Shown here: one piece after another, positions 1 through 64,000 of the stretch
Position numbering within the stretch: position 1 is the first letter of the stretch
Layout of the letters: the number at the start of each line of letters is the position of its first letter
Source of the DNA: Vermamoeba vermiformis
Taxonomy: Eukaryota
Direction of reading: 5' to 3'
NCBI GenBank assembly: GCA_045837725.1
Contig: JBEWZL010000063.1
Span: 186,001-250,000, forward strand
Length of the DNA stretch: 64,000 bases
The notes under the pieces: generated by a model
Database searches by the model: none
What the model was told of the DNA's origin: nothing
What the model saw: only the letters and a program-made list of their open reading frames with translations
Program-made: the position numbers and the translations under genes

Positions 1-232
1 GAATTAATAAAAATCAGCATTATTATAATTCAATATTTTTACAATTAAACGATAATGCATGGGCGTAAATAAATAAAAATGCGCCAAATTAATGAAATTC
101 GAATTTTTCTGATCGAAGATACTGTTCAGGTGCTTCGCGAAATTATTTAATAATAACGTGGGAGTTAATATAATATTGTTAATGTAATTTACTTTACCAC
201 GACCAACGTGGGATTTGGAAATCCAAGACCGT

Positions 233-406
233 TGCGACGATCCAATGTCGCTTTGGAAATTCCGTTTTCCTAAAATAGAAATATTAGTTTGTAAACCGTT
301 TTTGTATCTTTTTCGTATTTCGAATAAAGCACCACAACAGGTATTTTCTTACCTATTGTCTGTCTCCGTACTGATCTGATCCGTGAAGATAGTCTGCATC
401 TTCATA
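233..406 (+). repeat. 5' LTR (174 bp)
   Basis: TGCGACGATCC...CATCTTCATA, base-for-base identical by eye to 6615-6788. AATAAA at 323-328. Confidence 0.95.
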
Positions 407-408
407 TT

Positions 409-418: not shown

Positions 419-474
419 TTCGCCTGAATCCGTACTCCGTCTCTGCAACCGCGCCTTCATTTTCCACGTAGCTA

Positions 475-3400
475 ATGGAGAAGAATACGCCTGTTTCACG
501 CTCGTCCTCTAGAAAGGGGGAGAAGCGTCCGTCACATCTGTCAACGTACCACATCGAACAAACTTCAAACGGTAGTGATCACGATTTTTGGGTCGAACAT
601 CATGGGAGCGATGACTCCGACGACCAGATTACTTGGGACGATCTTGCCTATCTCGAGTCAAGCTCTGAAGACAGTTCCGAAGTCGAGCACAACCCGTCAC
701 ATCCAAGATCTGTGAATCGAAAGATCGAACCGACATCGGAAAAGAAGTCCAACAAGAAGAAGAATGTCCTTAAGGAATTTCTGGTTACCCATGCGACTCT
801 TTTGAAATCACTGTCGATCGAAGTCAAAGCGCTGCGTAAAGAACTCGATGAAACGAAGCGCAAGAAGAAGAGCAAGAAAGCTCCGCAAGAAGATCTGAAT
901 AAGACTATTTATCGTCCTTCTACTGAGCGCGATAACGATTCTGAGGACGATAGATCTGAAACTCCGCCCAAGAAGAAACTGTCCTTCAACACTCCAGGAC
1001 ACTCAACGCCTTATCGACCTCGAGGCGAAGAAGGACTCATTAATGACGATGGTCCTTATTTGGAGATTGGTCTGCAAGAGTCCATCAAGTTTCCTGCTGG
1101 TGCCGACCAACTTGAGACTTTCCAAGGCGAACAAGGTGACACGTTTGCGCTTTGGTGGGCTCACTTCCGTCGAATCTCTGCCAAGTGGAGCGACTCTGTT
1201 CGCGTCCACGTGCTGCTGGCTAAGTTTGGCCGCAATCCTCGTGCATGGCTCTTGAATGTGCTTGAAAACAAGATCACGTGGAATGGTCTTGTCAATGAAA
1301 TCGAACGCGCGTACTCGTCCCTCAACTCTGACACGGAGCTGCGCCAGAGCATGCGAAAGCTCAAGTGGTTGCCGAGTACCAAGAAGACTGCTCAAGTTTG
1401 GCTCCAGAAGATGGAAGCTCTGCGCGTGCGAATGAAAGAGAAGATCCCCGACAAGGAATTCTTGCGTCTGATCTTTGATGACTGTCTCCCGGCGAAAAAT
1501 CGCATGTATTTAGGAGACCCTGACAATTACTCGACGTATTTGGACTTCCGTGCAAAGTTGCTTCAACACGAGCTCACCTTCATGCAAGTGCTAGAAGAAG
1601 AGAACAATGAGCGTCAGAAGAACCACAACAATCGCGGTAGTGCTAAGAGTCCTGCCCCTGCAAAGGCCCAGTCAACAACTGCTGCCACTACGACCCCTGC
1701 GACGTCAACGACAACAGACGCCGCCACGACCGAGGTAAAGAGCAAGCCGGATGCATCAGGCGTCACTTGCCATTATTGTAAGCAATTGGGTCATTACAAA
1801 TCCGATTGCCCTAAAAAGAAGCGAAATGCTTTCATGTATGTCGCTTCTTCCGATCCAGGACCGTCCGAGGAGTCTTCGTCTGATACTGATGAGGACTCTG
1901 AGGAGTCTATTCAAGGCTCTCCGGGATCTAGCGTAGCCATCGAGCCTGTCGACGAAAACTCCGCTGAGCCTGTCATCGTCTCAGTTCATCATAGTTCGTC
2001 AATGCGTCAACAAATACAGGCATCTCGCGGCGATGGAGACGCTAGCCCACCCGTCCCCGATCGGCAAGTACCTCTCTATTCTATCCCACAACGCGTGTGG
2101 ATGCCAGACCTGATTGATACTGATGACTTCGGAACACCAGTTCGCTGGACTACACAACAAATTATTCCAACCGTCAACAACGCTGTTGTCCCGGATTTCC
2201 CGATCCCTGGTGTTCTTCCTGACACCCCTGGCTTGTCCCCCGAGCTGCTGATTCAGTTTGACGACATGCCTCAGCCTGAGCCTGGCAACAACACCAACGT
2301 TCAAGTGCCTGGTTCACCCCCTGTTTCTGTTTCAACGGAGACATCACTGCCCTCGCCCTTGAAAGACATCGTCATAGGCGACAAGAAGAGCCGTTTGTCC
2401 TCCGTGACTCCTGCTGAGACCGTCGTGACTATCGACGAGAACCCCTTCAAGTGTCTGTTGGACTCTGGTTCGAACGTCTCGCTCATTACAGCAGCTGCAT
2501 TGCAATTGTTGCCTGTTAATAGCTTCACTGTAATCCCCGCTAGCGACTCTTTTAAAGTCGGCAATAGCGAGTCTGTCTCCCTTCATGGTGCGGTGTATTT
2601 GCCCGTGACCATGTGTTCTTTGACTGTTCCAGTGCGTTTTGAAATCGTAGACCAATTCGAAGGCTACGACGTAGTCATTGGTCTTGACGAGATGATTCGT
2701 CTCGACATGGATTTATGTCTGCCGCTACGACAATTTAATTTGCCCGGTGGACATCCACAACTTTTGTGGATTGGCTACGCCCCAACGCACAAGATCCCTG
2801 TCCTGTCCTATGCTCCCGGTCCTTTTGCTGACAAACAGGTCCTTCAACCGTCTGTCACAACCCCTGTCAAAGTACGACTGCCAGTTGTCATTCCATCGAA
2901 TATGTTTTTCCGCATCGTCGATCCAACATGCCAAGATGCGTTTATTTTGACGCAAGATATTATTCAAGGCAGTGACAGTTTGTTTTATGAGCTCGACGCT
3001 TATAATCCTAGACTCGCCCGAGTGCATCTACTCAACGGGTTGCGGATCGCGAACATCGAGATCGTTGGAACTGATTCTCTCTTCCAAAAAGGGGAGAAGA
3101 AGGTCAATATAGAAGACAAGAATAATAACAACATGACTGTTGACCCAGAAGTTCCGACTTCGGCATCTGCTTCGACATCTGTTTCAACGTCAACGTCAAC
3201 AAATCAGAATTCCGACTCACAAAATCTTGATCCGGCAATGTTTGGTCTGAAGATTGGCAAACTAGAAGCTGAACAAAGAGCCAAGTTAGATCTATTGATT
3301 GCGAAATATTCATCAATTTTCGATCGACCCAAGAAGTGGGGTGCCAACATCCGCGTTCAGCACCAGATCGAACTGAAGCCCGATGCTGTCCCGTATCGTA

Positions 3401-6400
3401 CAACACCAAGACGCGTGCCTCCTCTCCAACAGAAGTCCCTGGATGATCAAATTGAAGACTTGCTGAAGCGTGGTATTATCCGTAAGTCCTCAAGTCCTTG
3501 GGCCTCGCCAATCGTACTGGTTAAGAAGAAGGATGGGTCTTGGCGAATCTGCATTGATTTCCGCATTCTCAATGACAAGACGAAAAAGGTTGCCTATCCC
3601 TTGCAACGAATCGACGCTGCACTCGACGGTATGGCTTACGCGAAGATCCTCTCGTCATTCGATCTTGAGAAGGGCTATTTTCAACTCAAGCTTCAAGAAG
3701 AGGACATTGAGAAGACTGCCTTCGTAGTACCCAACGGCCACTACGAATTTGTGTTCCTGCCGTTTGGTCTGACCAACGCACCTGCGACTTTTCAACGTGC
3801 CATGGACGACCTCTTCCGTGAAGAACTTTTCAAGTTCCTGATTGTTTATTTGGACGATATCATCGTCTATTCAGAGTCATTCGATCAACACTTGGAACAC
3901 CTCGAGATTTTATTCAAGAAATTGCAAGAGGCCAATTTGTACCTCAACTCGCCCAAGTGTCAACTCTGTCAAGACAAGGTCAATTACCTGGGTCACGTCG
4001 TCGGATCCAAAGGTATCGAGACTAATGGCGACAAGACCAAGGCTGTCAATAGCATGGAGCCGCCTCGTAACGTCAAACAGCTGCGCAGTTTCCTTGGAAT
4101 GGTTGGTTACTATCGCCGCTTCATTCAAGACTTCGCGACTCTCGCCGACCCTCTGCACAGACTGTTGAAGAAAGATGTCCCGTGGAATTGGAGTCTAGAC
4201 TGTCAGTATTCGTTCTTAGAACTCAAGAGTCGACTCACCAAGGCCCCAATCCTTGCTTTCCCGCACATGGACAAACCGTTTATTCTGCAAACCGACGCTA
4301 GCAACACTGGTATTGGCGCAGTTCTTGCCCAAGTCCAAGATGGTGAAGAAAGAGTGATTGCGTACTACAGTCGCGCCTTGCTGCCTGCCGAACGCAACTA
4401 CCACACCACTGACCTCGAGTGTCTCGCCGTCGTCGCTGCTCTGAAACACTTTCGCTGTTATTTGCTTGGCAGTGAATTCGAAGTGTTTACTGACCACTCT
4501 GCGCTGACTACTTTCCTGACTCGCAAACAAACCTCTGCCAGACTCCTGCGTTGGGCTCTCGAACTCGCTGAGTTTGGTAATTTCAAGATCAGTCACCGTT
4601 CTGGCACCAAGAATGCCAACGCTGATGGGCTCTCGCGCCTGGGTTCTGAGCGCGAAGACCAGCCTCGTGTCAATCACGCTGTTAGGACTATCAAGCCCTG
4701 TCAACTGTTTGTCTTGCATGGCACGAAGGATCGTCCTAGCTCAGTACAACTCAACTACGGAGAAATCTCGCAACTTCAACGCGAAGACGTTTGGCTGAAT
4801 CATATCTACGAGAGCATCGTCAATAGCAAAGTGCCTGACGACCCTGATGTAGCCAAAAGCGTTGCTGCTCAAAGAGACCTCTACATACTTGAAAATCAAG
4901 TCCTGCATCGCATCTACTCTGTCGAATCCAGTCACCGCCGTCACGAGACTCGCAAGCTCGTTGCTGTTCCACGCAGTCAAGTCCCGACCATTCTCAACGC
5001 GATGCACTGCAATGTCGAAGGCTCCCACCTTGGCATTGACCGTACCTACGAGAAAATTCGTCTGCACTTTCATTGGCCGTCAATGTATGGTGACATACGC
5101 CGCTTCGTTAAGGAGTGCGCGACTTGCGCAAAGAAGAAGCCGCCTGTGCGTTCCCCTGCTGGCCTGTTGATGCCAATCCGAGCTGCTGGACCATGGGACA
5201 CTGTTGGTGTCGATATCCTTGGCCCCTTGCCCATCACTCAGTCCAAGCACCGCTATATTGTCGTTTTTACCGACTACCTGACCAAATGGGTCGAAGCTTT
5301 CCCCATGAAGGACGCTGACGCAAAGACCCTGGCTCGTATATTCGTCATGGAGATCATATCTCGCCACGGAGCGCCTCGCAAGCTCATCTCTGATCGTGGT
5401 TCAATCTTCCTGTCAGAACTCAGCACTGCTATTTACGAATTCATGAATATCAAGAAGCTGTTCACGACTCCGTACCACCCCCAGACCGATGGTCTCACGG
5501 AGCGATTCAACAAGACAATTGCGCAAATGTTGACAGCTTACGTCGATCTGCATCAGACTAATTGGGATCAAATCCTGCCGTTAGCGCTACTTGCGTACCG
5601 CACTGCCCGTCAATCCTCGACAAGAGAGACTCCATTCTTCATGACCTATGGTCGCGATGCCTTTTTGCCGCTCAATCGTATTTACCCGTCAGAATTGGAT
5701 GAAGAGTACTCTCCCGACGAGTATACTTTCAAATTACTCGAGAACCTGAAGGCTGCATTTAAAATGGCTGATGTTAACGAAGACACTGCCAAGGCTGCTC
5801 AAGAACGCAACTATAACCCTGGACGCAAACCGGTGACATTTGAAGTCGAACAACTGGTTTGGTACTATTCTCCGAAGCGTGTCAAGAATCAAGTTCAAAA
5901 GTTAAGCCCGCTTTGGACTGGACCGTACCTCGTCGCTCAACAGCTCAGTCCTGTCGTCTATTTGATTGAAGACATTGACACTGGCAAGAAATTTGCTGCG
6001 AACATTCAACGACTCAAATCGTGCGAAATTTCATACGCTGAAGCGAAGAAACTCCGCCTTCGAGGCCTGCAACTACGCGACTCAGCTCAAAAGGGGGAGA
6101 AGATTCCTGAAGAATTGACCCCTACGGAACAGAAATTTTTAGAACAAGTTGAAGCCATGGACAAGTTCGACCTGTTTGACAAAGCTGAATCTGATCCGTC
6201 AAATTCAACATCCGTCAAACAAGAAGCTGAAATTTCTGCGGAAAATGCTGCTATTGAGCAAATCACTAAAGAAGAGGCTGATTTCATCGTGTCTCCTGAA
6301 GACGAAGTATTCCCGATAGTTCCGACTAAGGTCAGTCATTTCTTTGACGCATTATTCCGAATGTACACGACATTCCGCGACATTTCTACGTTCAAGATTA

Positions 6401-6603
6401 ACAAAATGGCCCAACAACTCGATCAGTTCTTTGATAAGCCGTTTATTATGGGTTCTACAGAACGAAAGAAACTCCTCGCCGAATTGAAGACTGCTAAGAA
6501 GTCCCGATCCGCTCTTTTGAAATTCCTCTTGGATTGCACTAGCAATTTCATGATTAAATTTGCTAGTAGCATTGATCGCCACCCTGACATACCGTCCGCC
6601 TAA
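475..6603 (+). CDS. Gag-Pol polyprotein in a single ORF: Gag, CCHC knuckle, aspartic protease, RT, RNase H, integrase with GPY/F, extra C-terminal domain
   Basis: CHYCKQLGHYKSDC; LLDSGS; SPWASPIVLVKKKDG..RICIDFR, LPFGLTNAPATFQR, YLDD; QTDAS..IGAVL..TDHSAL; HHCC zinc finger; VDILGP..SDRGS..HPQTDGLTER; WTGPYLV. Confidence 0.98.
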   Translation: MEKNTPVSRSSSRKGEKRPSHLSTYHIEQTSNGSDHDFWVEHHGSDDSDDQITWDDLAYLESSSEDSSEVEHNPSHPRSVNRKIEPTSEKKSNKKKNVLKEFLVTHATLLKSLSIEVKALRKELDETKRKKKSKKAPQEDLNKTIYRPSTERDNDSEDDRSETPPKKKLSFNTPGHSTPYRPRGEEGLINDDGPYLEIGLQESIKFPAGADQLETFQGEQGDTFALWWAHFRRISAKWSDSVRVHVLLAKFGRNPRAWLLNVLENKITWNGLVNEIERAYSSLNSDTELRQSMRKLKWLPSTKKTAQVWLQKMEALRVRMKEKIPDKEFLRLIFDDCLPAKNRMYLGDPDNYSTYLDFRAKLLQHELTFMQVLEEENNERQKNHNNRGSAKSPAPAKAQSTTAATTTPATSTTTDAATTEVKSKPDASGVTCHYCKQLGHYKSDCPKKKRNAFMYVASSDPGPSEESSSDTDEDSEESIQGSPGSSVAIEPVDENSAEPVIVSVHHSSSMRQQIQASRGDGDASPPVPDRQVPLYSIPQRVWMPDLIDTDDFGTPVRWTTQQIIPTVNNAVVPDFPIPGVLPDTPGLSPELLIQFDDMPQPEPGNNTNVQVPGSPPVSVSTETSLPSPLKDIVIGDKKSRLSSVTPAETVVTIDENPFKCLLDSGSNVSLITAAALQLLPVNSFTVIPASDSFKVGNSESVSLHGAVYLPVTMCSLTVPVRFEIVDQFEGYDVVIGLDEMIRLDMDLCLPLRQFNLPGGHPQLLWIGYAPTHKIPVLSYAPGPFADKQVLQPSVTTPVKVRLPVVIPSNMFFRIVDPTCQDAFILTQDIIQGSDSLFYELDAYNPRLARVHLLNGLRIANIEIVGTDSLFQKGEKKVNIEDKNNNNMTVDPEVPTSASASTSVSTSTSTNQNSDSQNLDPAMFGLKIGKLEAEQRAKLDLLIAKYSSIFDRPKKWGANIRVQHQIELKPDAVPYRTTPRRVPPLQQKSLDDQIEDLLKRGIIRKSSSPWASPIVLVKKKDGSWRICIDFRILNDKTKKVAYPLQRIDAALDGMAYAKILSSFDLEKGYFQLKLQEEDIEKTAFVVPNGHYEFVFLPFGLTNAPATFQRAMDDLFREELFKFLIVYLDDIIVYSESFDQHLEHLEILFKKLQEANLYLNSPKCQLCQDKVNYLGHVVGSKGIETNGDKTKAVNSMEPPRNVKQLRSFLGMVGYYRRFIQDFATLADPLHRLLKKDVPWNWSLDCQYSFLELKSRLTKAPILAFPHMDKPFILQTDASNTGIGAVLAQVQDGEERVIAYYSRALLPAERNYHTTDLECLAVVAALKHFRCYLLGSEFEVFTDHSALTTFLTRKQTSARLLRWALELAEFGNFKISHRSGTKNANADGLSRLGSEREDQPRVNHAVRTIKPCQLFVLHGTKDRPSSVQLNYGEISQLQREDVWLNHIYESIVNSKVPDDPDVAKSVAAQRDLYILENQVLHRIYSVESSHRRHETRKLVAVPRSQVPTILNAMHCNVEGSHLGIDRTYEKIRLHFHWPSMYGDIRRFVKECATCAKKKPPVRSPAGLLMPIRAAGPWDTVGVDILGPLPITQSKHRYIVVFTDYLTKWVEAFPMKDADAKTLARIFVMEIISRHGAPRKLISDRGSIFLSELSTAIYEFMNIKKLFTTPYHPQTDGLTERFNKTIAQMLTAYVDLHQTNWDQILPLALLAYRTARQSSTRETPFFMTYGRDAFLPLNRIYPSELDEEYSPDEYTFKLLENLKAAFKMADVNEDTAKAAQERNYNPGRKPVTFEVEQLVWYYSPKRVKNQVQKLSPLWTGPYLVAQQLSPVVYLIEDIDTGKKFAANIQRLKSCEISYAEAKKLRLRGLQLRDSAQKGEKIPEELTPTEQKFLEQVEAMDKFDLFDKAESDPSNSTSVKQEAEISAENAAIEQITKEEADFIVSPEDEVFPIVPTKVSHFFDALFRMYTTFRDISTFKINKMAQQLDQFFDKPFIMGSTERKKLLAELKTAKKSRSALLKFLLDCTSNFMIKFASSIDRHPDIPSA

Positions 6604-6614
6604 AGGGAGGTGAG
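6602..6614 (+). promoter_or_regulatory. Polypurine tract
   Basis: AAAGGGAGGTGAG lies directly before the 3' LTR and overlaps the gag-pol stop. Confidence 0.8.
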
Positions 6615-6788
6615 TGCGACGATCCAATGTCGCTTTGGAAATTCCGTTTTCCTAAAATAGAAATATTAGTTTGTAAACCGTTTTTGTATCTTTTTCGTAT
6701 TTCGAATAAAGCACCACAACAGGTATTTTCTTACCTATTGTCTGTCTCCGTACTGATCTGATCCGTGAAGATAGTCTGCATCTTCATA
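6615..6788 (+). repeat. 3' LTR (174 bp)
   Basis: Identical copy of 233-406, followed by the CCGT target duplication. Confidence 0.95.
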
Positions 6789-23688: not shown

Positions 23689-24810
23689 TTAGCAGCACTT
23701 TCTGTGAACAATGGCAGGACCAGACTCGTCATATTCTTCCTTGGAGATCCACATTTGTCGAAAGCAAGGATAAGAGGCCAAGATGGAACCACCAACCCAA
23801 ACGGAGTTCTTGCGCTCAGGAGGAGCAATGATCTTGATCTTCATTGTGGCAGGAGCAAGTGCAGTCAATTCCTTGTGCAAGCGGTCTGCAATACCACGGA
23901 GCATGGTTGTCCCACCAGACAACAGAACATTGTTAAAGAGATCCTTTCTTATATCAGCATTGCACTTCATGATGGAATTGTAAATAATCTCGTGAATGCC
24001 AGGATAGTCGTATTCACCATTGATCAAGTAGGGTTGGAACAGTGCTTCAGGGCAACGGAAACGTTCGTTTCCAATTGTAATAGATGTGCCATCAGGAATT
24101 TCATAGCTGATATCAGATTTAGAAGCACTCATCTCCTGTTCAAAGTCCAAGGCAACATAGCAGAGCCTCTCCTTGATTGTGCGGACAATTTCACGTTCAG
24201 CTCCAGTGGTGAAACAGTAACCACGCTCATTCACGATTTTCATCAAGTACTCTGTTAAATCACCACCAGCCAAATTAAGACGCGTAATGGCGTGAGGAAG
24301 GGCAGAACATTCATTGATTGGCACAGCGTAGGTGACACCTTCTCCAGAGTACAAGACAATACCAGAATAGGTGTTAGAAGAGTAGAGCGGCAAGGCAGCT
24401 TGATTGGCAACGTACATGGCAGGGGTGTTGAAGGTCTCGAACATAATTTGAGTCATCTTCTCTCTGTTGGCCTTGGGGTTCATAGGAGCTTCAGTGAGCA
24501 AGACAGGTTGTTCTTCGGGAGCAACACGAAGCTCGTTGTAGAAGGTGTGGCGCCAGATCTTCTCCATATCGTCCCAGTTGGTAACAATTCCATTCTTGAT
24601 GGGGTAGTTGAGGGTCAAAATACCACGTTTGTATTGGGCTTCATCACCAACATAATTATCTTTTGTTAATTCCTGACCGGATGACTTGCCTGAGCGAAGA
24701 CGGCCAACAACGGAAGGGAAGACGGCACGAGGAGCGTCATCTCCAGCAAATCCGGCTTTAATCATGTGAGAACCATTATCAATAACTATGACAGGAGGGT
24801 AGTCTGCCAT
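23689..24810 (-). CDS. act: Divergent, intronless actin paralog (373 aa)
   Basis: [80 protein letters not shown]. Start taken at MADYPP. Confidence 0.93.
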
Positions 24811-25068
24811 TGTGGTTGTGTTGGGGGTTTTTGTAAAAAGAATAAGCGGTGTTTTGCCGAGCAAAGTTGTGAAATGTCACGTGTTGCGATTTTTGACAGC
24901 TCGTCATCCGTGATTCTGTAAACGAAAATTCCTTGTTGACCAATCCAAACACGTTTTCTATTCTTTTCTTCGTTGTGGATCAAAATTACTTGGAAGTTTC
25001 ATATTGTGGATCTCGGACCTAACACATGCCAACGCATCCAGCCGGCTGAGTTACATCAACTAATTCCC

Positions 25069-37633: not shown

Positions 37634-40600
37634 ATGACGATCCGCATCCTGCTTTTCTTCGTACTTTTTGGAAGCTTTACCTACTCAGCCTTTGGGAACA
37701 ACGGTACGTACTCCTACTTAATAATGCCTTGCTAACTCTTTCTTCATGCAGATGTGTTGCTCCAGTTCAGAGTAAACAAGAGTCAAACGGTGACTTGTCC
37801 TAATAGCACCGTCTGCGCAAATCCATCTAGCGTTGCTTGGAATATCTCACTTGGTGGTGTTCCAGATAAATTCTGCAACGAGAGGTAAGTTCTAAGTGGA
37901 TCGAGAACTTATGTTTTTGTAACGAGCTGGATCTGACTTGTTTTAGATGCCATCTTCTGTTCTTCGTGCATTTCGGAGCTCATACCCCAGGAGTGACACC
38001 TGGAACTATCTTCAGCGCTGCTAGCTACACAACTACACGAGATCTGTACCGGTTCTTCGACTTGCTGAATAACTGGTTTCCGTACACACTCGGCTATGAA
38101 TTCGACTCGAACACGATCGGAGGATTCTCCGAGTTTGGAGGTTCGCAATATTTAATTTTCAGGCTCTTTCAATAATTTACTCAAACTTTTCCAAATTAGG
38201 CTTTCCGTCTGTAGATCTGAGCAATGCAACGATATCTGATATAAGATTGACTGTAAACTCCTTCACGGCCACTGCAGCGACTGTCAGCGGCTCCCCTGCT
38301 TTGAACCTGACCTACGATCTGACTTTTACCGTATTAGGCAATTGTGAGTGAAATGAATAATGCCACGTACGGATATCAAGACTAATCTTTATACTAATAG
38401 GGCACCCTAATTTGACTAATATCACTGCTCCTCCTACCGGCGACGCATTTGTTCGTAATGGCACTGCGTTTAGAAATACAAACTTCGGAAAATTAGACTA
38501 CTTGCTCGTCTCTCAAAACTTCTCGGATCCAAGTGCTACTCGCTACTCATACTTCGAGTTCGACCTATTCTGTATGTATAATTACCTGGTAATAGAAGAG
38601 ACCTCATCTGACGAGCTTTTTTTAGCTTGGACTGTGATCAACAAAGCGACGCTGAAATTGTGGGGCAGTTCGCTAGATAACGTTAGTATTGCTGCGATAG
38701 CTTTTTCAGTGAACGGCACGTTCAATGAAAGCACAATTACTTGGGCTAATGCTCCTCCGTTGAATTTGACCGCCTCTCGTAAGTTATTCTGTATGTAATT
38801 AATACCATTCTAACAGTCATTTAGTATTCCCTACTGATATTAATTCGACCGTTCGATGGTACGAGTTTGATATCACTCCATTGGTAAGTTCTAAGAATTT
38901 CGGCGGTTATTCGTACGGATCTGATCTTACGTTCCTTAGGTGCGAGAAGAGTTCCCTCACGGAAATGGTACTATATTCTTCGCATTAGTATCAACCTTTG
39001 GAGGCACCATGAGATTTTCATCGCGCGAAGGACCGTTCCCGCCAAAACTTGAGATCATCGCTGTGGTACCTGAAAACGAACAACTAGCATTACCCCCACT
39101 ATTCTCGATCGTTACTCCTCCCCTCCCAACCAGCAACCTCAAGCCCAACCTCAGGCTCAGCAACCGCAAGCACGGCCTGCGCAGCCTCGGCTCAAGCACA
39201 GCCTCAGGCTCAACCACCACTAATCCCACTCGTTCCTACTTCACCGCCTCAAGCTCAGCAACCACAAGCACGGCCTCAGGCTCAACCTCAGCCCCCTCAG
39301 GCTCAGCAACCGCAAGCACGGCCTCAGGCACAGCCTCAGGCTCAACCTCAAGCGCAACCACCACTCATCCCAATCGTTCCTACTTCACCGCCTCAAGCTC
39401 AGCAACCACAAGCACGGCCTCAAGCTCAACCTCAAGCGCAGCCTCAGGCTCAGCAACCGCAAGCACGGCCTCAAGCTCAGCCACAAGCGCAACCACCACT
39501 CATCCCAATCGTTCCAACTTCACCTCCTCAAGCTCAACCTCAAGCCCAGCCTCAAGCGCAGCCTCAGGCTCAACCTCAAGCTCAACCGCAAGCGCAACCT
39601 CAAGCACAGCCACCACTAATTCCTATCGTTCCTACTTCACCGCCTCAGGCTCAACCTCAAGCCCAGCCTCAGGCTCAACCTCAAGCGCAACCACAAGCGC
39701 AACCACAAGCGCAGCCTCAGGCTCAGCCACAAGCTCAACCTCAAGCGCAACCACCGCTCATCCCAATTGTTCCTACTTCACCTCCTCGGGCTCAACCTCA
39801 GGCACAGCCTCAGGCGCAACCTCAAGCTCAACCTCAAGCTCAGCCTCAGGCTCAACCGCAAGCGCAACCACCGCTCATCCCAATTGTTCCTACTTCACCC
39901 CCGCGCAGCCGCGCGCCGCCTCAGGCCCAACCACAAGCACAACCTCAAGCACAGCCGCAGGCGCAACCTCAGGCTCAACCACAGGCGCAACCTCCACTAA
40001 TTCCAATCGTTCCTACTTCACCGCCTCAAGCTCAACCTCAAGCCCAGCCTCAGGCTCAACCTCAAGCTCAACCACAGGCGCAACCACAAGCACAGCCGCA
40101 GGCGCAACCTCCACTTATCCCAATTGTTCCTACTTCACCGCCTCAAGCTCAACCTCAAGCACAGCCTCAGGCTCAACCACAAGCGCAGCCTCAAGCACAG
40201 CCTCAAGCGCAACCTCAGGCTCAACCACAAGCTCAACCACAAGCGCAACCACCGCTCATCCCAATCGTTCCAACTTCACCGCCTCAGGCCCAACCACAAA
40301 CACAACCACATGCGCAGCCTCAAGCTCAGCCACAAGCGCAACCTCAAGCGCAACCTCAAGCGCAACCTCAGGCTCAGCCACATGCGCAGCCTCAGGCTCA
40401 ACCACAAGCACAGCCTGAAGCGCAACCACCACTTATCCCAATCGTTCCTACTTCACCGCCTCAGGCCCAACCACAAACACAACCACATGCGCAGCCTGAA
40501 AGTCAACAACCTCACGGGCAACCACCACAGGCGGAACAACCTCACGGGCAACCACCACAGGCGCAACAACCTCACGGACAACCACCACAGGCGGAACAAC

Positions 40601-40857
40601 CTCACGGACAACCACCACAGGCGGAACAACCTCATGGGCAACCACCACAAGCGGAACAACCTCACGGACAACCACCACAGGCGCAACAACCTCACGGGCA
40701 GCAACCACCACAGGCGCAACAACCGCACGGGCAACAACAACCAGACAAGCAACAATCATCGGTGACTAATGACCCGGCAGTCTCTGAGGCCAGTGTCAAA
40801 CACATCGTGGCTGTTGTGCCCACTTTGTTGATTGGTTTGTTATTAGCTTGCTGCTAA
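37634..40857 (+). CDS. GPI-type surface protein: unknown N domain, CBM96/DNRLRE-like domain, very long Gln/Pro/Ala stalk (two apparent frameshifts near 39130 and 39190)
   Basis: Paralog of 13061-14804 (FFDLLNNWFPYTLGYE; DAFVRNG..NTNFG; ATLKLWG; FSSREGPFPPKL). The QPQA frame runs open to SVKHIVAVVPTLLIGLLLACC*. Confidence 0.72.
39130..40740 (+). repeat. Coding minisatellite: 12-nt QPQA units punctuated about 10 times by PPLIPIVPTSPP, then about 8 x 30-nt QPHGQPPQA(E/Q) units
   Basis: Directly visible periodic CAACCTCAAGCG/CAGCCTCAGGCT and CAACCTCACGGGCAACCACCACAGGCG repeats. Confidence 0.92.
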
Positions 40858-43735: not shown

Positions 43736-46293
43736 CTAAGTAGTGAAGGTGAGAGAATTGACGGCAATGACGTCAATAGTTTGACACGCGTCATCGCACA
43801 TTCCGTGCTGGCAATAGCATCGTTAGTAAATTGAATAAACGCTATTTAAATATTATATCGTACCCAGTTCCAGTCTTCAGGACCCAAATGAGCCTTTTGC
43901 TGGTGTCCTAACGAGTCTACAGCACGAGCGCGAAGTTTGTACATGCCCACATCCAGCGTCAACTCCACGGAGAAATTATGCCACGCAAAAACGCCAATTC
44001 TTGGCTCTAATTTCGCTCGTTTCCATGTTTGTCCATCGTCAAGACTAACTTCGACGAGCGCGATCGATCGGTAAAATCCTCCGCCGACCCAGACTTTGCC
44101 GTGCCAGACATGCGTGCCAGCCGTCAGGAATCGATTTCGCTCCATAAATGACGGATAACCAATCGGTTTAATCATGGCACGTGGTCTGATTTCTTGAGAA
44201 GGCACGGCCAAGTCCAAATCAAAATGTTGTCGGACATAGCTGTAGCTGACCATTTGGTGTCCTTTGCATTTATGATCGACGACTTCAATCGACTGCAACC
44301 ACTTGACGTTGTTGTCGCCGTACCAGCCAGGCGTTAAAATTCTTAACGGGAAGCCGTGTTCGCGTAACAAAGGCACGCCATTGTTCTCCCAACAAACCAT
44401 CATGAAATCTACGATCGGATCCGTCACTTCAACAGCACGCTGGTAATATCTTAGTGCGTCTTCTTGTACTCCTGCGTCGTAGCCAGTGAACACAATGTCA
44501 ACGGCTTTGTCCGTCAAACCCACGTGCTGCAATAATAATCGCAAAGGTATGCCGGACCAAATATAGCAACCAAACGCTTGAAGTTGCCAAGGCACGTGAT
44601 GATTGAATCGAGGTTTCATGAGAGTTCTGCCGTTGCCTGAGCACTCCATGACCAATGGTTGACGAACTACAGCGTTTTTGCCAAAATTTTTCAATTCTTC
44701 TAAAGTCCATTCAGTCGGCTTTTGAACGCATCCGTGCACTTTGAGCTTGTAATTCTCGGGCTTGATATGCTGCACGTCAAAATGGATCAGCAAGTAGTGA
44801 TTGCCTAACGGAGTAATGTCTTCGCCGAGAGCTTCGAAGTGTGTGCCGTGATTTCTGAGAGCTAATGCGACTTCGACCTTATTGTAGCTGCCGTCGAGAT
44901 CGTCGGTGTGTTTGTCCGATTTTAGCCATTCAAAATAACTCTTGGTCTTGTCCACAGTACTTTGCACGACCATCGGAATATTTTTGATCTTTTCAACGAT
45001 AACGCTTCCGAATTCTTTCTTGTGGGCTTCTTTAATAGCGTTTTCGGTAGCGGAAATTTCCTCTTTTTGCAGCTGTTCCATTCTTTTTCGGTCTTCTTCC
45101 GATTGCGCATCCGGCACTTTTTCAAAGCGAGTTGTCGGAAGACCAATAGGTGGATACTCCTAAGCATTAGAATTAGTCAATGGATTTCGGGTAATATTGA
45201 CTATACCGTATTTGGATTTATCTCGGGAGGCTGGATCACTTCGGATGCTTTGTCAAGATGCGCCGGAACATTATGCAAAATTTCCGGTTTTGGAGCCATA
45301 AACTCGGATGGCATTAGCGGACCACCTCTTGCAGTATCAGGAAACAGCTCAAAACCATCTTTGCACGACCAATCAGGTTCGTGTCTTGGTTTTGGAATTC
45401 CTTGAAAGAATCCAGTGCGCAGATGGTACTTTCGGAGCACTTGCCACATCTGAACGAGCTGTTGGCCGTAGTTCAAATCTTGGTTAGGAGGTGGAGAAGG
45501 GTTTGGAATGGGTTGCGCTGAAGTTCCGGACACTTCGGCAAGATTTGGAACTTGGAGTGTTCGCATCCACTCGACGACCGGCAGCACGAGGGATTCTCGC
45601 TCCCATTCCCAGTTTTTCTTCCATACTTGTTCAATATTATCCAGATTGGCCAAGCCTATAACCAAGAGTAAGCTTAAATTAGATATTGCCGGATTGAAAA
45701 TTACAAGATCTGGCTTACGTACATTGTCTATCCTTAACGTCAGCCCCAATCCGTTCTCTTATGATTCTTAATTGTAGAATAAACGATTCTCCGCGCTCTA
45801 AACCGTGCGCGAACAATGACTCTCCGTTCTGAATCTGATCGCGTGCCAGCGGATAAATCATGGCTTGACGTAAGTAGTTGTTGATGACCAGGGCAGATAG
45901 AAGATCTATAATACTCTCTAGTACTTGCTTGTCATGCGCCGATAAGCTCTCGACGATTTTTTGTTTTTGATGGAGCAAATCCAGTTGCGCTTTTTGCCAC
46001 TCTTGCGTCATAGTTATCTGTTCATGAGTAAGGTGCGACTTCTGGCGCTTAGCAATAGCAAAATCACGCTTTCTTTCTTGAGACCAGTCCAAATCCGACG
46101 GTACTGCGGCGACAAAGGCTGCAGAATAAACTTGCTCTTCTTCAGAAGGCTTCATTTCGACATTTTTTCCATTAAGAAGATCTTTGAGGCGTATAAAGCG
46201 ATCTGATATCGCTTTAGCTTGCAGATCTAGAGCTTGCGAAGTGGTAGTGCCCCACCCGTAGCCCAGGAGAAAACTTGATCCAGTAAAAGCCAT
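43736..46293 (-). CDS. Degenerate hemerythrin(HHE)-like domain fused to sulfite-oxidase-family molybdoenzyme (Moco and dimerisation domains)
   Basis: RNHG..ITPLGNHYLLIHFD, MECSGNGR (Mo-ligating Cys), HGFPLR..PGWYG..VKWL, VEVSLDDGQTW, RARAVD. Phase-compatible introns near 45662-45724 and 45160-45206 join three ORFs. Confidence 0.82.
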
Positions 46294-58195: not shown

Positions 58196-61027
58196 ATGCC
58201 CATCATGAAGCAACAGAAGAGTGGGCGAAATGCCTATCTTGCTTGGGAAGATGGCGTTATGCACAAATTACTCCGCATCCTACCGACGGGATTCGTTGCA
58301 AAATACAATACGTCGGCAGAAATACGAGTAGTGACGCTCTCATATTTACGATATTTTTTATTATACATTGTGCTATTATTATCATCATTTTATCCGCTTG
58401 GAAGATACATAGATCTTCTTGCCAATACATCCGGCATGCTTATTGGAACAACAACAACAATTATTGGATTTTTTCTATTTGTAATAACGAAAAATCCATC
58501 GGTTGGCACGAATCTCGTAATGATTAACTCAATGACGATTTTGTGCTGGCTCAGCTACAGTTATGGAGGAATGGCAAACAACATATTAAGGCATGACGCC
58601 CTTATATTTGCTATGGGCATGTTTTTCGGTAATATCAGAAATAGAATTTTGTGTTTTTAGAATTGTTGTGGATTTGACTCCCAAATTATTTTTAGGATTG
58701 AAGGGCGTCATCTCAGGCGTGGCATTCAATATTATATCGACGACTGCCTTTATGTACTTGGAGAGGAATGGCATGGACTTCTACGACGGCAGATCGAGAG
58801 AAGAAATTCGCGAGATTATGTGGTACGTTCCACCAGGTGTAAAAACTTACGTTTATCTTAGCTGCTATGCAAAATCCATTATGAATAATAGTATAATACG
58901 CTATCGGCGGGCGATGTTTTGAAATTTAGAATTTTTTTAAACGGAAGGCGTCCCAATTCCCTCAATGAAGCTTATAATGATTATCCAGCTGATTTCTTTC
59001 GCATTTTATGTTGTATTTGATTTGAAAAACTTACTTAGCATCATTTTCAGGTATCACGCTATGTACCAAACAATTATCAGCACTTTCTTGATGTATAGCT
59101 ACGAGCGAAAACAAGCGCAAGCACTAAGACATATCTCAGAGGTTAGCCAACATAAAACTGGTAAGGATGCATATAAATTTATTTCCAGATTATCGGAGAA
59201 AAAAAATGTACTATTTTTAGTTGCCGAAAATATTAGCAAAGGATAGATCCATGCCCCGAGATTATCCGATTTCTTACTATGTTTACTAATGCTCGCATTT
59301 TTAGAATTCCTTTGTCGCATGTCGCATGAGCTGAGGTAAAACCGAACCGATCGCACATTTGATCCCTTAACTAACTCCATTACACAACTTAGAACACCAC
59401 TTGTTGGTATAGTAGGAGCAATAGATATTCTAAACAACGCAAAGAACATTACGGCCGAGCAGTTGAAGCTGATTCAAATTGCCCGAAGTTGCGCAACTAA
59501 CTTACTCGGGATCATTAACGACGTACTTGATTTTTCAAAAGTAAGAATGTCTTTATCATATTATACCTAATAATAATGTAAATGAATTTAGATTGAAGCT
59601 GAGAAGATGAAGTTACACTTTGAAAACGTACACTTACGAGATCTGATCGACACGTGCGCACAAGTTGTATCTCCGTTAATCTCAACGAACCCAAAAGTAC
59701 AACTCAAGGTCGATTTTGACTCCCAAAAACTGCCTCAGAAGTTTTTTGGTGACTCGTTGCGCATTCGACAAGTGTTGATCAATCTTCTTTCGAATGCCAT
59801 CAAGTTCACTGAACAAGGCACGATAACTGTCAAAGTGTCATTAGAACAAAATATCAACAATATTCCGTGGTTGTTCCAGAAATCTCCGGTGGTACTCAAG
59901 AAGAGCGACAGTTTGGATAGCTTCGATCGAACGCGGTCTTCTTCACATCGCCGATCTGGTTCCGTCGAAAAGATGATGAAACCTGATAGTCCTAAAGTAC
60001 CAGCAGCATCCGAGAGAAGTCCGTTGTTCTTAGTTTTCTCTGTTATTGACACTGGCATCGGGATTGAACCTGGCATCATCTCGAAGCTATTTGATGCCTT
60101 CGAACAGGCTGATTCGTCAACAAGCAAGAAGTACGGAGGAAGTGGTCTTGGATTAGGTAAGTCAATTTCAACAGTGCGTGCCCTGGTGATTTTAGCAACG
60201 CGTACTGACTCGCTTATTTTTCAGCTATTTGCAAAAATATTTGCAAGCTGCATGGAGGAGATATTGCTGCTGAAAGGTAATAACGATCTTTTTGTACATC
60301 TTAAAGGTATAGAGGTCTAATAATGCTATGAAAGTGCTGGCAAGGGCAAAGGAGCTGCGTTCTATTTCTATGTTCCGTTTATTGAAGTAGCGGACGATAG
60401 TTTGACCAAAAGCATGAGCGAGATGACGAATTCGAGCAAGTTTTCAATGACTGTTATCAATATAGACCAATCGAATGTAAAGGTTGACGACGAAGAGGAA
60501 GCAGATCCAATTCATCCAAGTCAGACCGAAGTGAAAAGCGACGAGAGTGTGCTCCTTGCAGAAGACAACAAAGTGAATCAATTGGTTATTAAGACGATGT
60601 TATCGAAGTTAAATTACAGAGTTGATATTGCCAACAATGGAGCCGAGGCGGTCGAATTGATGAAGCAAAAGCGTTATTCCATCGTATTTATGGACATCGA
60701 AATGCCTATATTAAGTAAGTACCTCTCAGCTATTTAACAAATTTCGGTGGATATTCCTATTGATAAATTAGTGTCGAAGATTATGACGTGTAAAGTGAGT
60801 GGATCTAACTTTTTTTAGACGGGCTTGAAGCGACACGACAATTGCGAGAACTAGGATTCAACACACCTATAGTAGCACTCACTGCTCATGCGTTAGTTGA
60901 GACAAGAGAAGAAGCGTTTAAAAATGGAGTTAATGACGTGATCGCAAAACCTTGCAACTTCGAACAACTCCGACAAGTCTGCACTACATTCATAACCCCC
61001 AGCAACGGCGAAGACAAGCCGAGGTGA
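58196..61027 (+). CDS. Hybrid histidine kinase, paralog of 46885-49914
   Basis: TM region; [65 protein letters not shown]. Confidence 0.93.
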
Positions 61028-61386
61028 TAAAAGCGCGATGCTTCTGTAGTATTAAATGTAAATAGTGTAAAATATGTTTGTTGGGACCGTTTAAAAAATT
61101 GTTGTTCTGAGGTTTGAAGTTCAACTTTCAACTTTAAAGTTCAAACCACAATCCATCATATGATGTGCGATTATTTTAGCATACGTTATTCTAATTTTCG
61201 ACCGCCAAAAACCTGGCGTAGTACCACCAGCTCGTTGCGGAGAATCCAATCAAATCTGGCTTGATTCTCTGAAAGCAACCAGATCAGGACACACCAAGAC
61301 AGATCTGAGGTAATTTTCTTGTCAAGACAAAGAAGAAGGACGCACCGAAACAACCAACTACACATCTGTTTCCCTTCATTGCGCAA

Positions 61387-63938
61387 ATGCTCAAAAATAA
61401 GAAACAAGCAAAAAAGGCGGCTCACAGCCAGGTTCAAACAAAGCCCTGCGATACAGTGCTGATCGATGACGTTGTGCAACACATCTTCTCGTATCTGCCA
61501 GTCCGAGCGCGTGCCAAGGTTGGAGAGGTAATAAATATATTATTTTGAATATTATCCAATTTTTTTGGCAATTTGTGGCGTGATTAGTAATTTAAAAGAT
61601 TTTGGCGCCAAATCCGGATTTGTTATGTTGACTCAAGTTATTAAATTATTAACGCCTCACGCAGGTTTCAAAACAATGGAATGCGATTTCACGAAAGCCA
61701 TCTCTCTGGCCTGCTTTTGAAATGGACTTTAAATCCCGAGCTAATCGTAACGTCAAGCGCAAAAGGGACATCAACTCTACGAAGCATCTCATTAGCCTTG
61801 CTTCGTTTTTGCTCAAGTACTGCACCGACCTTCAGGACCTGCACTTGTCTTACGATCACCACGCGGAAATGACACCTGATCGCCTGGATGCATTCTTTCA
61901 AATCAAAACCTTGAAGAGAATGAAAATCTTAGAGCTCTCTCCACACGATATCAGCTACCAATACCTTCCTTCTAAGATTCCTGCGTGCTCCAACTTGGAA
62001 TTACTAAACATAGACTTGTACATCTCCGTCCAGGCTACGAGAAAACTGTTCCAAGTAAGTTATAGTAATGGCACACGTAATACGGGCTTGTAGTTACCAC
62101 TTATTCGAGATGAGCGTGCTCTAATTATGATTTGTAGGGCCTGCCTAATTTAAAGGAATTATACGTCCCACACGCCGGAATCGACTTTTTAAATCATAAG
62201 AACGTGTTCTCTTTCGCTAAAAAATTGGAGCGATTAGCCCTCAATTACTACAGCATGCCTGCGGAGTTGTTAGTCAAAACTTGCCCTTCATTACGCTTCA
62301 TTATGTACTATCGATGCCCGTACGCGAAGGATAGTGATAGCGAGGAAGATGATTTCAAGCCTATTGAAGTTATCGGCCAGACTGTTGCTATCAGGCCCGA
62401 GGGATTTGAAGACGAGTCACTAAGGGAAAACTACAAGCTGCTAGCACCTGTCCTTGTGCCTTATTTGGACAACACATCTTCTATGTCGTTCTTAGCAGCA
62501 CTGGCGACTGATTATTACTTTAACAAAGAAATAATTAAGTACTTGGTTCAGGAGCAGAAATTCGATCTGCATTACGAGTACGTTTCTCGTTTGAAATATA
62601 GTCTTAATTTGCTAACATTATTTATTCTTGTTGCTAGGCCTCCTAAATACAGTTATCGCCAATCGTTTTACTACGGAAAATTGAGGTTTCAGTTTCCACT
62701 TGACGCTGCGCTGCTAGGCTACTGGCGAGACGTAGAGTCAGTTAAAGAGTTGATAGAGCTTGGAGCCTACGCTGAATGCCCAAAAGTAGGGTATTCATAT
62801 TTGGCCCAAGCTAAGAGAGCCGACGTGCGCATGTTGTTGTTGCAACATGGAGCGGATCCAAACAAAATGGTCGAAGTCGATTTAGACAACAGAAAGAATG
62901 AGGATTATGCCACAAGTTCATTTCGCAATATAATTCATGCTCCAGCATTTGTATTTCACTTTATCGACGAACAGTTTGAGGGTAAGTTAAGATCCGTTTA
63001 ATTTAATAATTGATTTAGCGCTAACTATTGCATATATTTATAGATTCGGAGGAGTTTGTGTTTGCCTTGAAAGGAAGAGTCGATTTCAGTATTCAAGTGC
63101 GAAACAAGACCATGCTGGAGGTAAAATTCTTTCTTTCCATGTATCACGGCACTAACAGCTATAAATATCTAGTGGGCTATCGAACATAAGAAGTGGAACA
63201 GTATTTATGCGTTGCTTAAACTGGGCGTGAAGAAAATTAATGGCTGGGGTATGCACACTTCGTTCGCGCTGACCAATGGCAAAGTTGACGAGGCCAAGAT
63301 CAGACAAGCGCAAATGGCTCAAAAGGCGAAAGAAGAAGAAGAAAGGCGCCAAAGAGAAGAGATCAATAAGCGGCTAAAGAAGATGATTGAAGAGGGCAAT
63401 CCGCCTTGGTTGCACATCAATGGCAGCGATGACAGTGAGAGGTGCTGTAGCGATTGCGATAGCGATAGTGAAAATAATCTGTGGTGGTCAAACTCCGATT
63501 CGGACGAGCACGAGCATCGCAGTATCTTTAAAAATATTGAGAGTACGAGCAGCGAGGAGTCACACGACCCTTTTTTCGAAGAATTTAGCGACGAGGAATC
63601 CGAAGTAGAAGAGTCTGAAGTCGAAGAAGAGATCGAAGAAAATGATACTGAAGTGCGAGAAAAATTGCCTGCGAAGTTACAACGATTGTATGACGCGTTG
63701 GTGGGGATTCAGAAGATTATTCAAGATCTCGAAAGCTTTTCAGTGAAAGCGTTCCAGAAGCAACTCACACGAGACATCTTCCCTGCTTACATTACGAACT
63801 CAAATAGGAAGCGGCAGCTGAAGAGCGCGACTGGGGAAGCTGAGTCCAAAGATCTGTTCAAAGCGCTCTTGAAGCAGGTGGATCGATAATTTTCTGACAG
63901 AGTTTCAGCACGAAATTGAGAGCGTGGCTTCCAAGTAA
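61387..63938 (+). CDS. F-box, LRR, ankyrin-like repeats, acidic tract and retro-integrase-like C-terminal domain (stop at 63889 as given; 63938 if a +1 frameshift is corrected)
   Basis: LIDDVVQHIFSYLPVRARAKVGE|VSKQW (F-box); CTDLQDLHL, CSNLELLNI, CPSLRFI (LRR); VKELIELGA, LLLQHGADPN (ankyrin-like). The last exon is in frame. Confidence 0.8.
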
Positions 63939-64000
63939 GCAGTAGTTAACACGCAATAAATAAATTTTTCGGATCGGCAAAGGAAACAATATTTTCTCGA

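Follow-up and report, generated by a model that had tools for sequence, protein, structure and literature searches.

Two proteins encoded in a 64,000-nucleotide stretch of the Vermamoeba vermiformis genome (contig JBEWZL010000063.1, positions 186,001 to 250,000; hereafter the window) end in the same domain. The last ∼90 residues of a host F-box/LRR/ankyrin gene and of the gag-pol open reading frame (ORF) of a Ty3/gypsy retrotransposon are homologous. The explanation that we favor, with a probability of roughly 75%, is that a clade-specific Ty3/gypsy integrase tail was captured by the F-box gene from an element of the type represented by the integrase fragment P0009, and was kept. Relative to the libraries searched, an unnamed accessory domain that ends the integrase in a small Ty3/gypsy clade is new, as is the putative capture of this tail by a ubiquitin-ligase substrate receptor in which it was kept across species.

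The host and integrase tails are homologous

The host frame at 63173-63889 and the 2043-aa ORF end in the peptides that the original prediction had aligned, and, in line with its description, both copies of the domain lie C-terminally behind an acidic tract. BLASTP of the host tail against the element tail gave 32.7 bits (E 3e-6; 26/101 identical). In Smith-Waterman alignments (BLOSUM62) the two domains scored 67, compared with a shuffle mean of 25.1 (SD 4.6; z 9.2; 0/2000 shuffles as high). With the +1-frame continuation the score was 80 (z 11.8; 0/2000), and longer C-terminal pieces that included the acidic tracts still yielded a z of 8.3 (0/2000). Alignment of a host-only profile (A8) with a TE-only profile that contains no host-like sequences (A6) by hhalign resulted in 97.9% probability and an E value of 6e-13 over 86 columns, end to end. 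The proposal of a shared domain was thus borne out by both the shuffle control and the profile comparison. A tblastn search of the window with both domains detected no third copy and also left the known pair unlinked at E ≤ 10, and is therefore too insensitive for this host/element pair.

Table 1. Positions of the retrotransposon and host gene features within the window
Feature	Position	Strand	Basis or remarks
Target-site duplication, 5' copy (ACCGT or CCGT)	228..232	+	4-5 bases flanking both LTRs; 3' copy 6788-6792
5' LTR of Ty3/gypsy element, ∼174 nt, starts TG	233..406	+	Identity to 3' LTR
PBS-like TGGTGCGCCC (TGG motif)	from ∼410, after 5' LTR	+	Read directly
gag-pol ORF, single, uninterrupted, 2043 aa: zinc knuckle, protease region, RT, RNase H, integrase (H2C2, rve, SH3-like), linker, tail	472..6603	+	
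Acidic linker, poorly conserved, aa 1851-1949, between integrase SH3-like region and tail	6022..6318	+	
Integrase tail domain, 94 aa, predicted helical bundle	6319..6600	+	Host-tail homology, model, relatives ending other integrases
Polypurine tract abutting 3' LTR start at 6615	6602..6614	+	Purine run read directly
3' LTR	6615..6788	+	Identity to 5' LTR
Host exon 1: start codon, F-box first half	61387..61527	+	Matches P0002 N-terminus; GT-AG intron 61528-61664
Host exon 2: remaining F-box, LRR region	61665..62054	+	57% identical to P0002 residues 46-179; F-box, LRR_4
Host exon 3: LRR and ankyrin-like region	62138..62981	+	66.8% identical to P0002
Host exon 4	63044..63120	+	GT-AG introns of 62 nt and 52 nt either side
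Host exon 5: ankyrin-like end, Lys/Glu-rich stretch, acidic Ser-rich tract (∼63419-63664), tail	63173..63938	+	
Host tail domain, 90 aa with extra base disregarded	63665..63935	+	Homologous to integrase tails
Apparent frameshift: window one base longer than either X1 haplotype contig	63875..63878	+	

The retrotransposon is a Ty3/gypsy element

The element at 233-6788 belongs to the Ty3/gypsy group (Metaviridae), given its LTRs, target-site duplication, PBS-like motif, polypurine tract, and gag-PR-RT-RNase H-IN order (Table 1). Its LTRs are 100% identical over 174 nt, and together with the target-site duplication and the open reading frame they mark the element as intact and apparently recent. 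Pfam matches within the ORF comprised zf-CCHC (aa 432-448; E 1.2e-4), RVT_1 (1017-1176; E 1.3e-36), RNase H (RT_RNaseH, 1240-1368; E 6.2e-40), Integrase_H2C2 (1499-1557; E 1.6e-18), and rve (1580-1670; E 1.4e-8), while the protease match was weak (Peptidase_A2B; E 0.048). Since no chromo-family match follows the integrase core, a chromovirus-type integrase was ruled out for this element; a chromodomain was absent from the complete ORF (Pfam, E ≤ 0.1) and from 15 tail sequences (E ≤ 1). The 64-kb window contained no tRNA gene, which for one insertion says little about targeting.

The tail belongs to the F-box gene

A five-exon gene model with GT-AG introns encodes a 738-aa protein that is 60.8% identical (417/686) to the 698-aa orthologue P0002. 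P0002 is encoded without interruption on an mRNA-sized contig of 2282 nt, tail fusion included, and it shares its architecture, as does its cluster, with the gene in the window. The tail-bearing F-box gene is known from two host species, that of the window and the source of P0002. By its N-terminal motif the host product is classified as an F-box protein: residues 25-65 of P0002 matched PF00646 with 22.4 bits (cut-off 20.5) and F-box-like with 24.2 bits (cut-off 24.3). Intron 1 interrupts the motif in the window gene, and the exon 2 piece alone matched with an E value of 0.0021. Matches to the repeats fell below the cut-offs, with 21.7 bits for LRR_4 in P0002 (cut-off 27) and an E value of 0.0067 for Ank in exon 3 of the window gene.

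The tail is encoded in the same exon (exon 5) as the ankyrin-like region, with one open frame between them. In comparison with P0002, no other part of the host protein is as well conserved between the two species as the tail (70/90 residues identical, or 78%, versus 417/686, or 61%, for the whole protein and 63/134 for the rest of exon 5). From the gene model and the orthologue we conclude that the tail-bearing last exon belongs to the F-box gene, as originally assumed. Three RNA runs of the same species label contributed 0 reads over 61000-64000, which is no measure of expression. The original prediction's statement that no LTR or PPT follows the host copy covers only the ∼60 bases that are left before the window ends.

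In the sequence of the window, the frame 63173-63889 runs into a stop at 63887-63889, inside the tail domain. Removal of one base had been predicted to restore the register, and this proved correct. Both contigs that cover the site in DNA run X1 are one base shorter, at 63875 and 63877 (171.2 + 208.7 of 380 depth), and the predicted extension is open and in frame in the orthologue P0002 and the near-identical P0007. By tblastn, the final 19 residues of P0002 map to 63879-63935 in another frame. Because both haplotype contigs are one base short and two related proteins are in frame, the frameshift is most likely an assembly error and not a lesion.

The tail is an unnamed C-terminal domain of diverged integrases

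A profile search of 1,835,955,588 representative proteins (E ≤ 1e-3) retrieved 12 matches, all of which end ≤10 residues from the C-terminus. Integrase-type Pfam matches lay upstream of the tail in five of the 12 (P0001, P0009, P0011, P0015, and P0017) and in P0018 from a second search; they exceeded the curated cut-offs in P0001 and P0015 only and were below them in P0009, P0017, P0011, and P0018. P0012 aligned collinearly to the last part of the window integrase. Another five matches were short fragments of unknown carrier context, and one was the host gene (P0007). The only carriers outside transposable elements seen in these searches were the F-box gene and its orthologue, which constitute one gene family. 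Scans of metagenome contigs returned 347 matches to the host-type pattern and 557 to the element-type pattern, none of them confirmed. The tail is a family of ∼90 aa that sits at the extreme C-terminus, after an acidic linker, on integrases of several diverged lineages.

AlphaFold models of the host tail (pLDDT 93.9) and the element tail (pLDDT 90.6) showed the same helix pattern, with helix boundaries in common except at the single alignment gap; 29 of the 50 top VIA-align entries were common to both models. The predicted fold packs four long helices, with short C-terminal ones, into a compact bundle. Two residues of the final N-F-x3-F segment, F76 and F80, were invariant in 15/15 tail rows. 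The domain had been called unnamed, and it stayed so: neither a Pfam family nor a PDB sequence matched it, and its fold was no more specific than a generic four-helix bundle. Specifically, Pfam searches of 15 tails gave nothing below E 0.0079 and no family common to more than 3/15, and the best E value in a sequence-profile search of the PDB was 0.18. Foldseek found generic helical bundles only (best E 1.6 against the PDB and 0.49 against BFVD). The best VIA-align Z scores of 7.3 and 7.1 (BRIL fusions, Dus C-terminal domains, and Bpa) were below the helical-bundle background, and the ESM Atlas gave no usable match to the tail.

The host tail groups with a different element lineage

Identities to the window element in the SH3-like region and the tail, respectively, were 83 and 78% for P0001, 63 and 47% for P0011, 55 and 57% for P0018, 38 and 28% for P0015, 32 and 25% for P0009, and 26 and 23% for P0017. 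Linker identity was lower than both values throughout these six comparisons; for P0001 it was 54%, with flanking domains at 78-89%. The tail occupies the same position even on integrases that share no more than 26-38% identity in the SH3-like region, and it diverges in parallel with them; it is therefore old in the elements.

The host tail is 63-66% identical to the tail of P0009 but only ∼20-26% identical to that of the window element, and hence groups with a different lineage of transposable elements. The P0009 fragment is 283 aa long and comes from a 995-nt contig, and its tail is probably integrase-borne, judging from Pfam integrase matches that are below curated cut-offs. It aligned to P0007 with 59/93 identities over the tail (E 5e-37) and to P0002 with 71/133 (E 3e-36). 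In an unrooted tree of 94 columns, the two host tails, P0009, P0013, and P0017 were split from 10 other tails with a support of 93/98. Forcing the host tails together with the window-element lineage cost 13 log-likelihood units (p-AU 0.028, for groups named after the tree had been seen). The window's own element is thus not of the presumed donor lineage. Of the two directions of capture initially offered, acquisition of an integrase domain by the host is the better supported.

Order within the host/P0009/P0013/P0017 group received low support (23/14 and 28/27; AU p 0.22-0.47), and since the tree is also unrooted, its topology alone would allow a root on the host branch. P0009 and P0017 depart from the general co-divergence, with 63.9% identity (39/61) in the SH3-like region versus 28.1% (25/89) in the tail, so that the P0009 tail could have been exchanged.

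Origin of the host tail

We propose that the tail is an accessory integrase module of one Ty3/gypsy clade, joined to the SH3-like region by a variable acidic linker, and that it diverged in step with the integrase. The F-box/LRR/ankyrin gene would have gained the tail, probably with part of the acidic linker, from a P0009-type element before the split of the two host species seen here. The tail would have been joined, in frame, to the last exon at its 3' end and afterwards kept under purifying selection, as protein-level conservation (70/90) suggests. Transfer from element to host is the likely direction, since the domain was otherwise found here only at the ends of integrases of one Ty3/gypsy group, from which the host gene most likely took a piece.

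The opposite direction could have taken two forms: an ancestral host domain was captured by an ancestor of the elements, or the P0009 lineage replaced its tail with the host version, e.g., by template switching on packaged host mRNA. Placing the host pair as one side of a branch in the unrooted tree costs only 0.09 log-likelihood units (p-AU 0.47), the terminal branch of P0009 is very short (0.067), and the discordance between the SH3-like region and tail in P0009 and P0017 is what a nonvertical P0009 tail would produce. However, tails co-diverge with integrases, at the same position, across SH3-like regions as distant as 26-38% identity, and host carriers were limited to one gene family in our searches. 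A root on the host branch would moreover demand rate differences of about five-fold or greater; the path from host to P0009 measures ∼0.55, and those from host to other element tails exceed 2.5. We consider transfer from host to element improbable.

Of two further readings, the first is largely refuted already. Here, a degenerate retroelement fragment beside the gene would have been joined to it by gene prediction only, as the stop within the domain in the window as written might suggest. That stop is gone in both X1 haplotype contigs and in P0007, a single open frame leads from the ankyrin-like region into the tail in exon 5, the same fusion exists as a 698-aa ORF on an mRNA-sized contig in P0002, and the tail is the best conserved segment; a tail outside the host protein is thus very hard to maintain. 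Even more remote is convergence or shared composition of two amphipathic helical segments after acidic tracts. It could draw on the pairwise identity of only 26% and on the failure of tblastn to link the pair within the window at E ≤ 10, but 0/2000 shuffles reached the observed score, hhalign aligned the profiles over their full length at E 6e-13, intermediates such as P0009, P0017, and P0014 link both tails, and the predicted helix boundaries agree.

Possible functions of the tail

In the element, the tail may act as a protein-binding integrase appendage, like those by which integration complexes are tethered. Within the host protein, it may serve as an extra substrate- or partner-recruiting module that brings the ligand of the integrase tail to an SCF ligase. 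This ligand might well be a conserved cellular partner shared with the integrase, although we hold this only tentatively; that it is the integrase or a retroelement complex itself seems rather doubtful, and the remaining odds fall to something else. Within the host protein, conservation is highest in the tail (78% versus 61% overall), a pattern that a conserved ligand explains no less well than would an arms race against a fast-evolving element.

The original prediction had suggested an SCF-based system directed against transposons. As a dedicated receptor of this type, the host protein would contact integrase tails or their complexes through the captured tail, and SCF would ubiquitinate them. 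Its architecture would suit this role, since it combines an F-box with a C-terminal copy of a module from the class to be targeted, the window also contains an intact and apparently recent element with such a tail, and TRIMCyp-type fusions as described in published reports provide a precedent. Yet interfaces of host-parasite conflict are typically fast-evolving, whereas no part of this protein is better conserved between species than the host tail. The latter also shares only ∼20-26% identity with the tail of the window element. A complex prediction for the P0009 and host tails, run without alignments or controls, returned a score of 0.02 and a mark of 0.34, which is evidence neither way. On balance, such a receptor seems unlikely. 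The broader idea of SCF-based retrotransposon surveillance, in which the F-box receptor would reach integrase complexes by tail-tail contact or through a shared chromosomal tether, ubiquitinate the integrase or the tether, and limit integration, appears to us a speculative option of about the same low standing.

If surveillance of this kind existed, it would amount to a counterpart of TRIMCyp outside animals, based on a ubiquitin ligase and assembled with a piece of the element itself, and the F-box protein would join the few E3 ligases retargeted by retroelement-derived or retrotransposed modules. Integrase C-terminal appendages determine where retroelements land. A host protein that carries an integrase module on degradation machinery offers an experimental handle on the ligand of that module, and with this system one can examine whether copied element parts serve hosts in controlling or exploiting integration.

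Comparison with known systems

Among open-access articles, as judged by titles and the beginnings of abstracts, we found none on a fusion of an F-box with a domesticated integrase, which leaves its absence from print unproven. The chromovirus chromodomain and the Ty5 targeting domain are C-terminal integrase modules. In Ty1, a C-terminal integrase segment is described as binding AC40, and the Ty3 integrase is reported to act with TFIIIB (PMC7459421; bioRxiv 10.1101/2021.07.27.453949). Like these targeting modules, the tail is C-terminal beyond the SH3-like region, follows a flexible linker, and is conserved within its lineage; unlike them, it is a predicted ∼90-aa helical bundle, neither a short peptide motif nor a chromo fold, and belongs to no named family. 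GIN1, SCAND3/KRBA2, and similar host genes are described as retaining a portion of the integrase of a mobile element (PMC3424704, PMC3575427, PMC3670739), a feature that the F-box gene would share. In contrast to those genes, which according to these accounts kept a catalytic DDE core or a zinc-binding domain, it would have received only the noncatalytic tail, grafted onto an existing multidomain gene.

Fv1 is an element-derived restriction factor. Ty1 p22 is presented as a restriction factor in a review (PMC13709905), and integrated domains of NLRs are described in PMC4759884. In all three, as portrayed there or generally understood, a host uses a copy of a parasite or target domain, as the F-box gene may do; their domains come from Gag or from host targets of effectors, whereas here the source would be an integrase tail. 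The closest parallel is TRIMCyp, reported as TRIM5-cyclophilin A fusions in owl monkeys and macaques (PMC4378998, PMC4936896). In both cases, a retroelement-related event apparently added a C-terminal recognition module to an E3-ligase component, and selection then maintained the fusion. The two differ in that the TRIMCyp module is described as host CypA that binds viral capsid, while the module here would derive from the integrase of a retroelement. The ligase part is also different, an F-box receptor and not RING/TRIM, and restriction, reported as demonstrated for TRIMCyp, is a conjecture for the host F-box gene.

Shared C-terminal domain of the F-box protein and the integrase

The host F-box/LRR/ankyrin protein and the gag-pol polyprotein of a Ty3/gypsy LTR retrotransposon in the window (here, the window element) had been proposed to end in the same domain. 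BLASTP aligned the two C-terminal pieces with an E value of 3e-6 (26/101 identical). Smith-Waterman alignment of the bare domains yielded a z score of 9.2, which rose to 11.8 once the +1-frame continuation of the host tail was included, and in both cases none of 2000 composition-preserving shuffles reached the observed score. Using profiles, hhalign of the 2 host tails (A8) against 10 element tails from which every host-like sequence had been left out (A6) gave 97.9% probability and an E value of 6e-13 over 86/90 columns. AlphaFold produced confident models (pLDDT of 93.9 for the host tail and 90.6 for the window-element tail) from different inputs, namely all 15 sequences for the former and the 10 non-host-like ones for the latter. 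The predicted helix boundaries were equal, shifted only by the single alignment gap, and of the 50 best VIA-align entries the two models shared 29. The shared domain was confirmed, on stronger evidence than the original prediction had available.

Features of the window discussed in the text
Feature	Position	Strand	Remark
LTR pair	233-406 and 6615-6788		174 nt each, 100% identical to each other
gag-pol ORF	472-6603	+	2043 aa; terminates in the element-side peptide quoted in the original prediction
U-box ORF	6937-8157	-	tandem units (3 x 138 nt) at 7324-7711
SAM ORF	8144-9121	-	adjoins the U-box ORF
CBM96-containing ORF	13061-14041	-	
Actin	23689-24876	-	
Overlapping open frames	38940-40857	+	492, 589, and 254 aa
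Molybdopterin oxidoreductase	43846-45159	-	
Hybrid histidine kinase	59340-61027	+	HATPase_c and response-regulator receiver
Host exons	61387-61527, 61665-62054, 62138-62981, 63044-63120, 63173-63938	+	five-exon model
Host frame	63173-63889	+	closes with the host-side peptide quoted in the original prediction

Structure of the host F-box gene

All introns of the five-exon model are GT-AG (137, 83, 62, and 52 nt), and with one extra base in the window disregarded, the model encodes 738 aa with a sole, terminal stop. It is 60.8% identical (417/686) to P0002 (698 aa), an orthologue whose F-box passes the Pfam cut-off and whose LRR matches are subthreshold. P0002 is encoded by one uninterrupted ORF on mRNA-sized contigs of ∼2.28 kb, and a 3-kb contig holds two pieces of the protein, as an intron-bearing gene would give. 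Exon 5 comprises both the ankyrin-like region and the tail with no stop between them, and the tail is the best-conserved part between the host model and P0002 (70/90 versus 63/134 in the remaining exon 5). The gene model, the orthologue with the same fusion, and the exon 5 frame thus argue that the tail-bearing last exon belongs to the F-box gene. A hybrid histidine kinase is encoded immediately upstream.

Removal of one G near 63878 had been predicted to extend the match, and this was borne out: P0002 and the near-identical P0007 (230 aa, the host gene itself) read in frame through the extension, and in a tblastn search the P0002 C-terminus (19 residues) matched 63879-63935 in a different frame with 79% identity. 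In X1, a DNA sequencing run that may derive from the sample from which the window was assembled, two contigs of about equal depth span the site, each one base short, at 63875 or 63877, and jointly accounting for 380/380 depth. One of them reads K-Q-W and the other K-R-W; P0007 matches the K-R-W contig, also in a change at 63924. At 63870-63880, the window string appears to combine both alleles, and the resulting extra base creates a stop at 63887 that is probably false; the reading-frame break would thus most likely stem from the assembly. Over 61000-64000, X1 gave two contig sets, each at about half depth, that differ by SNPs and small indels (e.g., gaps of 3 bases at 62832 and 2 bases at 63949), which suggests a heterozygous or mixed sample.

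The window element and its neighborhood

The gag-pol ORF is part of a complete LTR element. The same 4-5 bases border both LTRs, a TGG-initiated PBS-like site lies downstream of the 5' LTR, and the 3' LTR is immediately preceded by a purine tract. In the order typical of Ty3/gypsy elements, Pfam identified a zinc knuckle, RT, RNase H, the zinc-binding domain of integrase, and the rve core; it had no match in the last 94 residues. Because of its identical LTRs, target-site duplication, and single open gag-pol frame, the element (228-6792) looks like an intact, recent insertion. Its 3' LTR ends ∼150 bp past the stop-codon end of a U-box gene on the minus strand; the U-box ORF, whose tandem units encode Phe/Gly/Ser-rich repeats, and the SAM ORF are probably exons of a single gene. 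Elsewhere, three long open frames overlap in different phases, and a Pfam scan of the two longest gave no match. The window is gene-rich eukaryotic chromosomal DNA with short introns, and the two loci are surrounded by ordinary cellular genes (actin, a molybdopterin oxidoreductase, and a CBM96-containing ORF).

Distribution and origin of the tail

Searching 1.84 billion representative proteins with a profile built from four tails gave 12 matches at E ≤ 1e-3, all with the domain at the extreme C-terminus; one further carrier, P0018, came from a word-indexed search of 5.8 billion clusters. Integrase-type Pfam matches lie upstream of the tail in P0001, P0009, P0011, P0015, P0017, and likewise P0018, with curated cut-offs passed by P0001 and P0015 only. 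P0012 is collinear with the window integrase end and its linker, and P0008, P0010, P0013, P0014, and P0016 are short pieces with no readable context. The F-box gene, represented by P0007 and the orthologue cluster P0002-P0006, was the only nonelement carrier among the proteins recovered. The family has few members, and those sampled are overwhelmingly integrase-borne.

Across element lineages, SH3-like/tail identities to the window element fall together, from 83/78% (P0001) to 26/23% (P0017), so that the tail appears to be ancient in these integrases and to have been inherited vertically with them; the intervening linker is less conserved in every element lineage compared. Of the two directions of capture originally envisaged, acquisition of an integrase domain by the host was the better supported, but not with the window element's lineage as donor. 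The host tail is ∼20% identical to the window-element tail (26/101 in the wider BLASTP alignment) versus 63-66% to that of P0009, an integrase fragment collinear with window polyprotein residues 1732-2035. An unrooted maximum-likelihood tree separated both host tails, P0009, P0013, and P0017 from the other ten tails (support, 93/98), leaving the order inside this group unsettled. Forcing the host tails onto the window-element lineage cost 13 log-likelihood units (p-AU of 0.028, with the group defined post hoc from this tree). The simplest reading is a single capture by the F-box gene from a P0009-type element before the two host species diverged. The P0009 lineage may still have seen an exchange in the reverse direction: the tails of P0009 and P0017 are far less alike (28.1% identical) than their SH3-like parts (63.9%), whereas in other element pairs both diverge together. 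Overall, we assign a probability of about 0.8 to transfer from transposable element to host.

Possible function and comparison with known systems

As originally stated, the domain is unnamed: the tail had no counterpart among Pfam families, PDB sequences, or specific solved folds, and an ESM Atlas search gave no usable match. The best structural matches were generic up-down four-helix bundles; at a Z of ∼7, these do not rise above the background that the tool states for helical proteins. Preceded by an acidic linker, the tails themselves are positively charged (net, +2 to +9). By analogy in position and behavior with the tethering modules of LTR-element integrases, exemplified by Ty1 and Ty3 (PMC7459421; bioRxiv 10.1101/2021.07.27.453949), the tail may act in the element as an accessory module that tethers the integrase to a cellular partner. 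Once grafted onto an F-box receptor, it would hand its integrase-side ligand over to the SCF ligase. The strong conservation of the host tail slightly favors, as this ligand, a cellular partner of the integrase that is itself conserved; alternatively, the F-box protein may recruit the integrase complex, as the decoy model of the original prediction holds.

A search of the open-access full-text literature for an F-box/integrase-tail fusion found nothing pertinent. Nearest in logic is TRIMCyp, an E3 component with a gained C-terminal recognition module (PMC4378998, PMC4936896); by origin, the closest are domesticated integrase genes (PMC3424704, PMC3575427, PMC3670739); and nearest in position to the tail are integrase targeting appendages. 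In contrast to all of these, the piece captured would be a noncatalytic integrase tail of an unnamed family, and its recipient an F-box protein.
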